Assembly (NCBI GenBank): GCA_046539225.1
Contig: JBKHHG010000004.1
Location: 1-32,974, forward strand
DNA from: Candidatus Nanohaloarchaea archaeon
GTDB lineage: Archaea > Nanohalarchaeota > Nanosalinia > Nanosalinales > Nanosalinaceae
DNA: 32,974 bases
Direction of reading: 5' to 3'
Shown here: piece by piece, positions 1-3,000 of the stretch
Numbering within the stretch: position 1 is the first letter of the stretch
Layout: the number at the start of each line of letters is the position of its first letter
Made by a program: the position numbers

Positions 1-3000
1 ACCGGTATAAACACGGCTTTAACGGCCTCAGACTGATTTAAAGGATTTAAATTCCTGTAAAAATTTTAAGTATCGATAGCGAGTCCCTATACGTGAGTTA
101 TGAGGTCAGGATCAGAGAATCCGCTGAAGATGAGATAAAGAAGCTTGACAAGTCTAAACAACAGGAGGTCATAGGCTAGTTAGATAAACTTGAGGACTTC
201 CCCAAGAAGTACGGTAAGCCTTTGAGAGGCCAGTTAAGCGGGGTCTGGCAGTTGAGATCAGGTAAGTACAGAATCTGGTATACTGTAGATGAAGATACTG
301 TTGAGGTGCGTGCAGTTAAACATAAAGAAGATGCTGAAAGCCTTTACTGAATTTCTTCCTTCAGCTTTTTTAGAGACTTTGAAGACTCTTCCTGACTATC
401 CTTCAGCTGGCGCATAACATTCTCGTCCTCCAAGGTCTCAATAGTCGCCTTCATCGATTCGAACTCCTCTTTAGGAATCCGTACGTATCCATCATCAAAC
501 TCGACATCCGCCATAATTTACTTTTGAGGCCTGAGAGTTAAATCAATTTTCCAAACAAGGCCTCCAATTACAAAAATTCGCTAAACCTCATCTAAATAGA
601 AGTATGCCGGGGCGGAGATTTGAACTCGAAGCTCGCAGATATGGAGCTTCTACCATCAAATACCGCCATATTGAAGTATTATATGCCGGGGCGGAGATTT
701 GAACTCCGGAACCCCTGCGGGACAGGATATCAAATCCTTATCCTGAAAGCCGCCTTGCGTGGCTTATGATGCCGCAGATTTCTGTATTGAAATCTGCTTT
801 GAGCACGCTTCACTTAGAAACGTGCGGCTCGAACTTTCAGAAGTTCGGTTCTTAAGTCCTGCGCCTTTGGCCACTTGGCTACCCCGGCATTTTTTGGGAC
901 TTTGGCCGGGTTGGCAAGATTTAACTTGGCTACCCCGGCATAAATTGGTGATTACCTGTTATGGATGTTAGAACTGTTGAGTTATTTAAGGCCTGTCATT
1001 CGATTAGCGCCGAGGCCTTGATATAGGTTGACCGGAGCTCCTCCTCTATCTTTTCTACCGTTCTCTGGTCTTCCCTGAATACTTCCGGGCTTTCGCCTTG
1101 CTGCATCATTTCAGATCTGGCCATGTACTCGTGTTCGTAGGCCTCGTCCAGTACTTCGTCCATCTTCTGCTCTATCCAGTCAGAAGAGGCCTGGAGGTCG
1201 ACGTGGTCGCCTCTCGGAGAGTAGTCGATATCCGGATGGTTGTAGGCCAGGTTCTCCAGCTTGAATACTGTTTTGGAATAGTTCTCTACTGTTTGCATAG
1301 ATTAAGGATTTTTCTGGTTGGAAAGGGCTTCATCTACTTCATTGATGTATTTGGCGATTCTTTTGGTTTCCTGTCGAAGCTGTGGAAAGTTTTCCGGGTT
1401 GTATTCTACTGACACACTGGAACTTACATTGGCCCATACATCCGGCATATCTTCTGGCTCTTCGATAGGGTAATCCGCCTCTTCAAGCAGGTGGTCCTTG
1501 TTTATATAGAAAATCTGGACGCCTGTCTCATCAGCCGTTACATCAAGTATCTGGCCGCTCAAAACGGTTTCCTGATCAGCGATCTGGCCAGGGTTAGCTG
1601 GGTCTTCAGCTGCCTGTTCAGGACTGAATCCTATCTCGTACTCCAGAAGATCATTTACATATGAAGCAACCTCATCGTAACTTTCAGGCGAGGGTTCCTC
1701 GTCATCGATCTGCTCCTCTGGTATAGGTACTCTATCTGGAATTGCTTTTCTGGGATCAAAGACCCCCACATCTTCTTCCGGTGTTACAAGCTCATTATCT
1801 TCCTTCGTATATTCATCATCTCCTGGATTCATAACGTTACTAACTAAGTATAACAAAAATTATATAAGAACCGGTAGAATCTGAATAAGACTTATATGGA
1901 AAATTAAGGCCCTGGATTGTAGCTTGAGGCCCTGAAGCCGGTGAGATGTGATTCTTCGAGCGCTTCTTCTACACTTGATGTTTCAAAGGCCTTTACGATG
2001 TTTAAAACGTTTCTGGCGGCTTTTTCATCGTTTTCAGGGTGTTCTGCTTCCAGCCTTATTTCATCGCCGTTGACTTCGAGTCTATCGTCAGCAGGCGGTG
2101 AGATTTCATACTCTTTGAAGTATCTGGCCAGGGCTTGGACGTACTCTACTGAGGCCTTTCCCTTGCTGTAGCCCCATTCAAGCCTTCCGTCCATCTCGGA
2201 GAGTTGGAGGCCTTTCTCTTCTATCAAACGGTTGTAGGTATCTGGCTTAGAAGCTTGTCCGAACATTATCCCTGAATCTTCTGTTCGAATTCGACGAGGT
2301 CTGTTTTGATGCTGTCGACTGAGGCCTCGAGGAGTTCCCTGTTTGTGTAGCCCGAGGTGGATTCGATTCGGAAGATGAAGTCGTCTCCGTCTTTTTCGTA
2401 TCCGATTGTTCCGCCCTGGTGTTTGGCGTGTTCGCGGCCTGTTCCAAGCACTGCTGTTGCTTCGAGTTCAAGGTCCTGTCCTTCTTTCAGTGTCACAATA
2501 TCTATGCCTTCGTTGACCGGTTCTGCTTCCTCGTTGTCGGTCTGTATGTCGCCGGATTTTACTGTTGCAGGGCCTTCCTTCTTGATTGCGATGTGAAGTG
2601 TATCGTCCTCGTCAAACTTTTGTGGGACTGTAAACGGCACCTGTCCCAGCCTGTTGGCCAGGTCTTCGTCGAAGAGGCCTGACTCGTTTTTCACTACATC
2701 GATCTCTTTTATCGCAAGCGTCGGGACTCGGGCCATCATTGCTCTTCTGAGTGCGTTTGCGACAGCCGGGTAAGAATCCTTTAACCGGGCTTCCAGAACT
2801 CCATTCTCTTCTTCGCCTATCTCAAGGTTCATACTCTTCTACCTCTCTTCCCGCCTTTCTCCCTGCAACTGTCGTGAGGTACAGGCGTCACGTCTTCAAT
2901 GTTTCCGACTTCCATGTCTTCGTTCCGGGAAATGGCTCGGATCGCTGGCTGCGCACCTTTTCCTGGGATCTTGTTGCCCTGTCCACCGGGAGCTCTTACA

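Follow-up and report, generated by a model that had tools for sequence, protein, structure and literature searches.

In the genome of a Candidatus Nanohaloarchaea archaeon, tRNA genes are accompanied by second copies of their own ends, and these copies are best read as the outer arms of small intron-type units, a family that is spread through the lineage and seated on tRNA gene ends. The window analysed here is a whole contig of 32,974 nt (JBKHHG010000004.1 of assembly GCA_046539225.1, positions 1 to 32,974 of the forward strand), which belongs to a MAG of 38 contigs that is 82% complete (G000). Each unit follows one order: the gene end (D1), a spacer, an inverted copy (I), hairpin B or one of the alternative modules D and E, and a direct copy (D2). 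The inverted copy always covers the T-loop, and D2 starts in the T-loop (at G53 or A58) and stops exactly at the discriminator; the cases at the 5' end are the mirror image. Gene and copy are spaced 50-141 nt apart by hairpin modules only, with no ORF. A preliminary description of this genome, which had the copies running from T-loop to gene end, perfect and decayed ones side by side, with a few recurrent hairpin modules in between, is borne out on these points, and the same modules also build canonical introns in this genome.

Two unit-bearing tRNA genes in the window

All features of the window given below lie on the minus strand. The tRNA-Leu(UAA) gene (684-888), as predicted by aragorn, comprises exon 1 (851-888), an intron of about 122 nt at the canonical position (728-850), and exon 2 (684-727), which includes the inner copy D1 (G53-N73) at 684-704. 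The intron opens with module F (831-846) and is missing from the congener G004 and from G005. Behind the discriminator comes an AT-rich spacer (668-683), whose length and sequence vary among genera, followed by an inverted partial copy complementary to the T-loop and the T-stem 3' strand ('anti-T', 656-667), the conserved hairpin B (627-651) and the outer 3' copy D2 (605-625). The latter extends from G53 to the discriminator and is identical to 684-704 at 21/21 positions; a repeat search returned a perfect 25-nt direct repeat (603-627 and 682-706), which equals D2 and D1 with 2 nt on each side. The last 21-25 nt of the gene are in this way repeated without a mismatch 54 nt downstream of it. 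The core of hairpin B hardly varies, some units showing compensatory changes, and the anti-T helix is retained in 16 units. According to the minimum-energy fold, anti-T pairs with 607-623 and the whole unit forms one long hairpin of I:D2 plus hairpin B (-25.9 kcal/mol, z -3.7, with 0/200 shuffles as good), while the tRNA T-arm is kept with D1 and D2 is closed into its own hairpin. Archaeal transcription terminates at oligo-T. The first run of five T past the unit, read from the sequence as a likely transcription stop (571-578), lies beyond the unit, which is therefore probably co-transcribed with its tRNA. By eye, at loci of this genome and its relatives, T runs tend to come after D2 rather than D1.

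The start of the same gene is duplicated upstream. The outer 5' copy (924-941) consists of AT plus nt 1-16 of the tRNA, and its 18 nt are identical to 873-890; the repeat search found here a 25-nt repeat (873-897 and 924-948) that is 88% identical, with the first 18 nt perfect. What is repeated is the first 16-18 nt of the gene. With an imperfect inverted copy on the other side of a 6-nt loop, this copy forms a leader 'mimic' or minihelix (905-939, containing the copy of nt 1-16) with a predicted hairpin of -16.4 kcal/mol (z -2.6). One homologue precedes Leu-CAA on contig C14, and the mimic also precedes the Leu genes of many relatives, where it covaries with their acceptor sequence. The 5' copy had previously been reported as a relic; its presence stands, but this reading is not supported in that form, the copy being part of a leader element that is conserved before Leu genes across the order. 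The leader further holds a second copy of a D-loop segment (tRNA nt 17-24) at 900-907, 8 nt of which are identical to 865-872, and the same 8-mer is the direct repeat that flanks the D-loop introns of G008 and G015. About 40 nt upstream of the outer 5' copy, a promoter-like AGGCCT + TAAATAA box (982-994) was read from the sequence, which we infer from the archaeal TATA consensus to be a candidate promoter.

The window's second unit-bearing gene is tRNA-Ser(UGA) (11241-11385, with a 59-nt intron; aragorn). Its trailer unit (11173-11225), which unit model R1 matches at 11172-11234 with 63 bits, is composed of anti-T (11214-11225), a hairpin B with a compensated stem (11185-11209) and the first part of the outer copy (11173-11184). 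Past the T-loop this copy is split by a 52-nt insertion of two hairpins (11121-11172), and a like interruption is present at the same place in the Ser-CGA copy of G021. The second part of the copy (11109-11120), made up of the T-stem 3' strand, the acceptor 3' strand and G73, has 12 nt identical to 11241-11252. Downstream of it lies an A-hairpin-D composite module (11027-11103), which has 35 nt in common with the Ser-CGA trailer at 100% identity. On the other side of the gene, a leader that combines a hairpin with a reverse-oriented module A (11387-11437) abuts the tRNA 5' end. The Ser-GGA leader on contig C34 matches it at 89% identity across 107 nt, and the congener carries module D at this place.

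Recurrence across the genome and the order

There are 27 tRNA genes in the genome, of which 16 have predicted introns of 46-196 nt (aragorn). When the last 30 nt of each gene were locally aligned with its own 300-nt downstream flank, scores of at least 13 were reached in 8/27 genes (Gly-UCC, Leu-UAA, Ser-UGA, Arg-GCG, Ser-CGA, Tyr, Arg-UCU and Phe), and Ile-UAU scored 9. With the tRNA-specific last 17 nt only, scores of 11-13 were obtained in 7/27 own flanks versus 1/702 foreign flanks, the sole foreign match being that of Ser-GGA with the flank of Ser-UGA (identical 3' ends). Seven of the 27 tRNAs have a clear copy of their own 3' end, and two more have a decayed one that falls below the threshold (Gly with a score of 8, Ile with 9). 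The nine tRNAs for which such copies had been claimed are accounted for in this way, and the same holds for two details of the claim, namely 2 extra nt following GTTCA in three copies and a module (48-50 nt; earlier given as 48 nt) that the Arg-GCG and Arg-UCU loci share with 100% identity. Copies of the 5' end reached an own score of at least 11 in 3/27 tRNAs (Leu-UAA 17, Tyr 13, Leu-CAA 11; Gly had 9), and the control gave 5/702 cross matches, all with neighbouring tRNA genes or paralogues. Leu-CAA is an addition to the 5' copies noted before (Gly, Leu-UAA and Tyr). Over 27 units, D1 and D2 share 94.8% identity from G53 to N73 and only 37% in the next 10 nt.

Short matches are expected by chance because T-loops are alike among tRNAs, and a MAG in 38 contigs is fragmented; nevertheless, chance similarity or an assembly artefact is scarcely credible as an explanation. 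The contrast between own and foreign flanks with the tRNA-specific 17 nt speaks against it, as does the same architecture in complete single-contig genomes. In addition, public contigs from two runs of one study span gene, module and 3' copy, one covering window positions 99-882 with 0 differences and the other 1-882 with 6 differences, the 4 of these that are listed being located at 98-458 and none of them at 600-710. These two runs may be the source sample and therefore give weak independent support. Among the public contigs listed, none bridges 882-912 beside the 5' copy. Public DNA contigs on window positions 1-12000 included no length variant at the unit and none that lacked or multiplied it, and no RNA data set was among those listed for the window. 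The joints listed at tRNA genes in public contigs either carried other letters between their sides or combined low depth with one short side, and are taken to come from tRNA genes of other organisms.

The unit model matched 28/41 related genomes of the order, and 13/41 had no match. Of 20 sampled matches, 18 lay directly behind an intact tRNA with a matching end; as for the other two, the one in G015 was cut by the contig end with the tRNA not visible, and the one in G016 showed no unit. Among 185,579 species genomes, the exact core was found only in records titled Nanohaloarchaea or "uncultured archaeon", and the exact B-hairpin-plus-T-loop pattern had 0 matches among 2.9 million viral contigs. 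The long hairpin folded for the window unit was recovered unaided by RNAalifold, with the same 17 pairs, from 16 units of 14 genomes, 4 pairs showing compensatory change; a first, less homogeneous mixed alignment had yielded no pairs. Pairing across 19 units occupied 87.4% of cells, which was matched by 1/500 shuffles and dropped to at most 58% when the partners were slid. For the inverted copy, tRNA-specific pairing is only weakly supported: of three test versions, with permutation p values of 0.007, 0.043 and 0.21, the one by free duplex energy was not significant (0.21), and the in-register and alignment versions were weakly significant. Rfam gave tRNA matches only on the window, and on 540-1000, with E up to 5, its sole match was a chance-level mascRNA over the tRNA T-arm. 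Modules B and D had also been considered as C/D-box or K-turn elements, a reading that was dropped as the motifs misfit by eye and no Rfam match was seen.

Which module is present changes from genome to genome: at tRNA-Leu(UAA), hairpin B is found in G000, G004, G005 and G007, module D in G009 and module E in G010, and copies are absent from G008, G012, G014, G018, G020 and G022. Copies are far rarer in the congener G004 (2/39 tRNAs) than in the present genome, and in the comparison with this congener the flanks were too diverged to align and no empty site was seen beside a filled one. An array of three units occurs in G030, hairpin B of G007 holds nested hairpins, and interruptions of the outer copy are seen in G000 and G021. 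The Ser units of four genera are alike even in the start of the spacer, yet each D2 equals its own tRNA. Likewise, gene end and copy alike have the TTCGAAT loop in G004 and the CTCTT stem in G010, and at least eight genomes repeat their own Ser stems. A unit that is conserved across the order, with a copy that tracks each genome's own tRNA, speaks against taking the copies simply as relics peculiar to this genome. By eye, several Ser, Arg and Pro trailers begin with a small hairpin in which the final acceptor bases and the base next to them are paired, with covariation.

Kinship with tRNA introns

The units are related to other introns of the genome, as seen both from BLAST and from a module census. 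Modules A and F open canonical introns just past the anticodon loop; they are found, too, directly behind the discriminator of a gene or of a copy. Module D is the reverse complement of F. Among 75 BLAST matches between loci (reciprocals not fully removed), 29 connect an intron with a trailer (13 in the same and 16 in opposite orientation) and 10 an intron with a leader. Moreover, tRNA-Leu D-loop introns exist at three loci in 2/41 genomes (G008 and G015), flanked by 8-nt direct repeats, with a B-type hairpin and an inverted copy inside. Folded to minimum energy, the G008 intron has its repeat copies paired, with a 3-nt bulge beside a 5-bp intron helix (bulge-helix-bulge motif); in the corresponding fold of G015, the first repeat pairs with the inverted copy and not with the second repeat. 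As judged from sequence and these predicted folds, the D-loop units of the two genomes are true introns. Their grammar (direct repeat, inverted copy, hairpin, direct repeat) is that of the bracketed modules, which are therefore tied to introns.

The mature tRNA sequence is uninterrupted at all T-loop and 5' units, and interruption occurs only in the D-loop version (G008, G015). When equivalent splice pairs in D1 and D2 were scanned in 26 units at 24 offsets, a full bulge-helix-bulge was formed in at most three units at any offset, under a rule hand-calibrated on two canonical introns only. The preliminary description had proposed a former T-loop intron with a left-behind exon; as no bulge-helix-bulge joins the T-loop copies, such an origin could therefore only be surmised. 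Comparison with G004, made by eye, shows canonical introns gained without duplication of the flanking exon, and duplication is therefore no general mark of module arrival.

Our preferred reading, to which we assign a probability of about 0.45, is that the units are insertion modules of intron type whose arrival duplicates the exon segment beside them, giving true introns at the D-loop and, at the T-loop, units that cannot be spliced and persist only as trailers. Modules of the same stock as tRNA introns would enter a tRNA loop, and an event at the DNA level would duplicate the adjoining exon segment. Where this segment holds a self-complementary tetranucleotide, such as GGCC in the tRNA-Leu D-loop, the two copies could pair and serve as the central helix of a bulge-helix-bulge, and the unit would persist as a spliceable intron. 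No such helix would be possible in the T-loop, where a working gene would be left only if the duplication reached the gene end. The resulting unit in the 3' trailer would be co-transcribed, the pairing of I with D2 would leave the tRNA undisturbed, and ordinary 3' end processing would presumably remove it. Recombination among repeats, by which arrays would expand and contract, may keep the copies gene-like, perhaps with a contribution from selection; the sharp stop of identity at the discriminator fits selection on D2 equally well as homogenisation.

A bolder and unlikely generalization is that duplication of an exon segment around a small palindromic insert may be a general route by which archaeal tRNA introns are born. 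Copies with a self-complementary tetranucleotide would pair antiparallel and, with three bases past each, would provide a ready-made bulge-helix-bulge, so that splicing would excise exactly one copy plus the insert; trailer and leader units would then be failed introns, surviving only since the duplication had reached the gene end. Were this true, the long-open question of how introns arrive could be addressed directly in DPANN archaea. In any case, one lineage holds the same modules in three states, as canonical introns, as repeat-flanked D-loop introns and as trailer or leader units with exon-end repeats, and the modules have recently multiplied in this genome; this provides a concrete sequence of stages on which ideas about intron gain and loss can be tested. 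The units may record how tRNA introns arise.

Alternative explanations and known systems

The units could instead be functional parts of the pre-tRNA under selection, with leader and trailer hairpins that hold a spare tRNA end together with its antisense, which guide or time end processing or folding, or from which a small RNA is released; such an RNA might be spacer-I-B-D2, about 75 nt long and one-to-one with its tRNA. This possibility, which we consider somewhat unlikely, draws on the presence of the unit in 28 genomes of the order, the near-invariant hairpin B with compensated stem variants, the tracking of each genome's own tRNA by D2, and the end of identity exactly at the discriminator, an RNA-level landmark. 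It also gains from the Leu leader mimic, kept across families and covarying with the acceptor, and from the covarying trailer-start hairpins of Ser, Arg and Pro. However, the unit is missing from 13/41 genomes and from 37/39 tRNAs of G004, the same tRNA bears different modules in different genera, copies are decayed or interrupted in some cases, modules occur in both orientations, and no Rfam family matches; nor is it evident why D2 would need to equal D1 beyond pairing with I. It seems very unlikely, on the other hand, that the T-loop unit is a working intron, in which D1, spacer, I and B are excised and D2 is the real 3' exon, or that both routes are used. Splicing from any D1 position to the same D2 position would yield a normal tRNA, the grammar equals that of the D-loop intron in G008 and G015, and I can also pair with D1 (by eye from folds), which would free D2 for the cloverleaf. 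The scarcity of a bulge-helix-bulge between D1 and D2 argues against this, as do the minimum-energy fold, with the T-arm on D1 and D2 in its own hairpin, and the decay or interruption of outer copies beside intact genes.

Among described systems, the introns of Thermoproteales resemble the present units in that related modules occur at several tRNAs and gene positions, including D-loop and T-loop sites. Fujishima in 2010 is said to have reported intron 'transposition' between Thermoproteales tRNA genes. The accessible text of PMC4090602 describes non-canonical bulge-helix-bulge introns with this proposed 'transposition', which serves as a positive control in the accessible part of bioRxiv 10.64898/2026.10.13.758758; many disrupted tRNA genes are described for DPANN archaea, the group to which the present lineage belongs, in that of PMC5829648. 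In contrast to Thermoproteales-type introns, most units here lie outside an uninterrupted gene, have no splicing motif and are bracketed by exon-end duplications, which are not described in the accessible parts of the literature on archaeal tRNA introns that was examined. A literature search, mostly outside subscription journals, found no published description of such units. In split and permuted tRNA genes, stand-alone pieces of tRNA ends adjoin complementary sequences. Split, tri-split and permuted genes are covered by the accessible text of PMC4033280 and PMC3978253. The loci described here share the feature that tRNA-end pieces adjoin sequences complementary to them, but every locus has a complete gene. 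The idea that split genes use the spare ends was rejected: a D-arm motif scan outside annotated genes gave many matches and no convincing orphan 5' piece, the one that was tRNA-like by eye being a truncated gene at a contig edge.

The copies also invite comparison with the traces of mobile elements. Work by Reiter in 1989 and Williams in 2002 is said to have found that integrative elements at tRNA genes leave partial tRNA repeats. One instance, in the accessible text of PMC9897764, is a 44-bp repeat (att-type partial tRNA) around a 21-kb island in Pyrococcus yayanosii. On such a model, which we regard as quite unlikely, the copies would be attL/attR-type duplications from site-specific integration into the T-loop, and the insert a remnant of an element arm or a miniature element served by an integrase in trans. 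Elements that integrate at tRNA genes repeat the 3' portion of the tRNA directly, starting in a loop and stopping at the exact gene end, and leave the gene intact; such a repeat is found here. Other points in favour are that copies number inserts plus one, with tandem units of different kinds, as expected when serial events stack, that the bases before D2 partly rebuild the T-stem (4/5 pairs in the window), and that tyrosine integrases occur in 22/41 related genomes, some adjoining tRNA genes. A bracketed element with integrase or cargo is not found, though: the inserts are 50-141 nt of hairpins without a gene, always retain the same arm of about 45 nt, contain an inverted copy, and are common to many tRNA identities, so that one arm is joined to many different tRNA ends. 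Neither tyrosine integrase (Phage_integrase) nor Cas1 nor reverse transcriptase was found in this 82%-complete genome. No sampled model match (0/20) lay at the far end of a kb-scale element, and no far copy was present within 20 kb of the integrase-adjacent tRNAs G005 Pro, G004 Cys and G008 Leu-UAG; for a fourth, G004 Thr, the locus extended only about 1.8 kb downstream. The core pattern is missing from the viral contigs, and integration at the 3' end fits neither the mirrored copies at the 5' end nor the form seen as a D-loop intron.

Casposons and other transposons make long target-site duplications, of 14 nt or more, at tRNA 3' ends. Insertion beside a tRNA 3' end with at least 14 nt of target duplicated is likewise seen here, but the copies (16-25 nt) take their length from tRNA landmarks (G53 or A58 to N73) and not from a fixed stagger, and no casposon genes are present; a casposase origin was set aside, as Cas1 occurs in 3/41 genomes and not in G000. 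Compared with MITEs or other transposons, I and D2 behave as inverted ends, the duplication length again follows tRNA landmarks, and there is no known transposase. An origin by reverse transcription, suggested by copy lengths resembling 3' tRNA fragments, was also rejected, since RVT_1 is found in only 2/41 genomes and no CCA is copied. For annotators, these loci are a warning that a tRNA-end fragment adjoining a tRNA gene is not necessarily the scar of an integrated island.

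Copies of tRNA gene ends and the anatomy of the units

The window is contig C4 in full, 32,974 bases of an assembly (genome G000) of 606,781 bases in 38 contigs, with a completeness of 82% and a G+C content near 49%. By aragorn, this genome has 27 tRNA genes, of which 16 contain introns of 46-196 nt. The tRNA-Leu(UAA) gene lies on the minus strand at 684-888, and its 122-nt intron sits at the canonical position. Its end (682-706) is repeated at 603-627 as a 25-nt perfect direct repeat, and its start (873-897) is repeated at 924-948 with 88% identity overall and a perfect match over the first 18 nt. 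When each gene's final 30 nt were aligned to its own 300-nt downstream flank, eight genes scored at least 13 and Ile scored 9; at the 5' side, Leu-UAA, Tyr and Leu-CAA have clear copies and Gly a weak one. With only the 17 tRNA-specific bases, a 3' copy was matched in 7/27 own flanks versus 1/702 foreign flanks, the sole foreign match being a Ser isoacceptor with the same end. Because of these own-flank and foreign-flank counts, the copies are real and far beyond chance, which bears out the preliminary description of tRNA genes accompanied by copies of their own ends. One public-run contig spans gene, module and 3' copy (99-882) with 0 differences, and a second spans 1-882 with 6 differences, four of which are listed at 98-458 and none of the listed ones within 600-710; both runs belong to one study, and 882-912, beside the 5' copy, is bridged by none of the contigs listed. 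The flank counts, together with the contigs that run across the unit, exclude chance or artefact.

The 54 nt that separate the Leu gene from its 3' copy are non-random in content. A 12-nt inverted stretch (656-667), complementary to the T-loop and the 3' strand of the T-stem, is separated by four to five unpaired bases from a 25-nt hairpin (627-651). The stretch between gene and copy, taken with the copy, folds as a single long hairpin (-25.9 kcal/mol, z -3.7), and the tRNA retains its own T-arm in that same fold. A homologous unit, its hairpin stem fully compensated, lies in the Ser-UGA trailer (11173-11225), and the Tyr and Gly trailers are variants. At Arg-GCG, Arg-UCU, Ser-CGA and Phe, the copy starts at A58 and is preceded by other modules, which can pair, as read by eye, with a T-loop-like stretch across a small hairpin; a T-loop-like GTTCA with two extra bases stands ahead of the copy in three of these four loci. 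The 5' units, also read by eye, are the mirror image, running from outer copy through hairpin or loop, inverted copy and spacer to the gene. When 19 units were aligned, 87.4% of the cells were paired in this structure, a level as high being reached in 1/500 shuffles, and slid partners gave at most 58% pairing. RNAalifold returned no pairs on this mixed alignment; from 16 homogeneous units it recovered the same two helices unprompted, with 17 pairs, 4 of them showing compensatory change.

Two further arrangements were noted at gene ends. Several Ser, Arg and Pro trailers (L020, L079, L083, L086, L089, L090, L094, L025) start with a small hairpin, its loop TTTCA or similar, in which the end of the acceptor strand and the base next to it pair with the trailer start; when that base changes, its partner changes too. 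Ahead of tRNA-Leu in many genera of the order, and with all five Leu anticodons, stands a leader mimic (window 905-939; L005, L015, L026-L030, L032, L033, L040, L078) made of an acceptor 5' strand, a D-arm start, a loop and an inverted copy. In this mimic the acceptor bases covary with the gene behind, and a further conserved motif nearer the gene is complementary to the mimic's inverted copy. At L003 (G007:C17) a run of N separates the mimic from the tRNA-Leu gene, which leaves that leader unreadable.

Spread and turnover among relatives

The units are a lineage-wide family. With the Leu locus as query against 40 relatives, exon 2, module and copy matched at 87% identity in the complete genome of another genus (G005), at 81-82% in the congener G004 and in G007, and at 74-75% in four further genomes. 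In every case the copy is identical to the tRNA end of the genome that carries it: TTCGAAT occurs in both gene and copy of G004, and the CTCTT stem in both in G010. A covariance model of the unit found matches in 28/41 genomes of the order, as many as 11 in a single genome; among 20 sampled matches, 18 stood immediately downstream of an intact tRNA (Leu, Ser, Tyr, Pro or Met) with a matching end, one was truncated at the edge of a contig, and at one no unit was seen. Across 27 units, gene end and copy were 94.8% identical from G53 to the discriminator and 37% identical in the next ten bases. Across 185,579 species genomes the exact hairpin-plus-T-loop pattern turned up 36 times, each time under a record title of Nanohaloarchaea, Nanohalobium, Nanosalina, Asbonarchaeum or 'uncultured archaeon', and it was absent from 2.9 million viral contigs.

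The unit at tRNA-Leu(UAA) is of the hairpin-B type in four genomes, of the D type in G009 and of the E type in G010; in six others (G008, G012, G014, G018, G020 and G022) the gene stands without a copy. The congener (97% complete) has copies at 2/39 tRNAs, and its introns are far fewer and shorter than those of G000, though the tRNA sequences are nearly identical. Two Arg loci of G000 share a 50-nt module at 100% identity. Modules A and F stand at the start of canonical introns, directly after the anticodon loop, and are also found behind the discriminator, whether that of a gene or that of a copy; D is F in reverse complement. BLAST matches between introns and trailers, from which reciprocals were not fully removed, numbered 13 in the same and 16 in the opposite orientation. 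Units form arrays of two or three in relatives; at L075 (G030:C16:26600-27450), tRNA-Leu(CAA) has three units in tandem behind it, the first equal to the third, the outcome of a recent duplication in which a block of two units was copied. Hairpins are nested within hairpin B in G007, and a two-hairpin insert splits the outer copy at the same place in the window's Ser-UGA unit and in G021. A few module copies lie away from tRNAs. Hairpin-plus-module-D copies at G000 C21:~8250-8300 and C37:~2995-3050 stand alone with no called tRNA gene near, and may represent either genes for small RNAs or strays of the module.

D-loop introns, the splicing motif and a proposed origin of the units

In G015 (two Leu genes) and G008, tRNA-Leu carries a D-loop intron bracketed by an 8-nt direct repeat of the exon; it holds an inverted copy of the repeat and a B-type hairpin, which is the grammar of the trailer units. 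The repeat starts with a self-complementary tetranucleotide. Read by hand, its two copies can pair antiparallel, with the next three bases of each as two bulges, and the start and end of the intron form a further 4-bp helix; cuts placed two bases inside each bulge leave the mature D-arm as expected, under a cut rule calibrated by hand on only two canonical introns of G000. The minimum-energy fold shows this layout in G008 and differs in G015, where the first repeat is paired with the inverted copy. A second copy of the same 8-mer in the window's Leu leader (900-907) we read as a remnant of a D-loop intron of this kind. Among T-loop units, with every equivalent cut pair tried, the full bulge-helix-bulge splicing motif appeared in at most 3/26 at any offset. 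Neither this motif test nor the fold supports a working T-loop intron. The proposal that the copies are small exons left behind by a T-loop or D-loop element is partly supported: the modules that they bracket are shared with introns, but the same motif count weakens it.

We favour a reading in which intron-type modules would enter tRNA loops and duplicate the adjoining exon segment. A module would persist as an intron where the duplicated segment can build a splicing motif; where no such motif can form, it would persist as a trailer or leader unit, given a duplication reaching the gene end. These units are probably co-transcribed with the tRNA, because T runs come after the outer copy and not after the gene, and they would fold on themselves before being cut off together with the trailer. 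The arrays suggest that recombination among repeats is ongoing, which could keep the copies alike. As to the mechanism left open in the preliminary description, the anatomy and conservation are seen here, and we infer the insertion step, as well as the enzymes, transcription and processing of the units.

Two other readings compete with this one. Were the units functional leader or trailer elements, one could understand their conservation across the order, the abrupt loss of identity past the discriminator, the sharing of even the spacer start by Ser tRNA units of four genera, and the retention of the Leu leader mimic, covarying with the acceptor stem, before Leu genes across families; however, their presence is patchy, modules are swapped and occur in both orientations, and copies are decayed. 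Scars of site-specific integration would fit the repeat boundaries and the stacking, but the inserts are tiny and gene-less, one arm is common to many tRNAs, 5' mirror forms exist, and no full element was found among the 20 sampled matches, within 20 kb of three integrase-adjacent tRNAs of relatives or in the viral contigs. Searches of G000 (82% complete) yielded no Cas1, tyrosine integrase or reverse transcriptase. Two known phenomena come nearest: the partial tRNA genes that integrating elements leave behind (PMC9897764), and archaeal tRNA introns of the non-canonical, possibly transposing sort (PMC4090602; PMC5829648). Neither extends to small hairpin units that combine exon-end copies with an inverted copy. 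The route of intron arrival in archaea is still open according to a 2026 preprint (bioRxiv 10.64898/2026.10.13.758758), and no published description of such units was found in the literature searched.

Ser leaders and other features of tRNA loci

The Ser-UGA and Ser-GGA leaders (window 11387-11487; G000 C34:3877-3990) are 89% identical over 107 nt and contain a hairpin and, directly against the tRNA, module A in reverse orientation. The shared leader has a promoter-like box about 85-100 nt upstream (11470-11487 in the window), and the congener has module D where the Ser leader carries reverse module A. By eye, the palindrome AGGCCT recurs in intergenic stretches of G000 and relatives (window 982-987 included), often beside AT-rich boxes or at gene ends, and may serve this lineage as a signal for promoters or terminators. 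G000 C27:390-653, which lies just upstream of tRNA-Arg(UCU), matches archaeal RNase P RNA over the full length, though weakly (35 bits, against a gathering score of 84). The aragorn labels 'Leu taa' (G000 C2:555-707) and 'Ser aga' (window 28326-28456) look wrong by eye because the intron offsets the call; the anticodon loops read Val(GAC) and Thr(CGU), respectively. The tRNA-Trp gene at G000 C1:4445-4714 has a 196-nt intron carrying several C-box- and D-box-like motifs, and so resembles the known archaeal case of a tRNA-Trp intron that holds a guide RNA.
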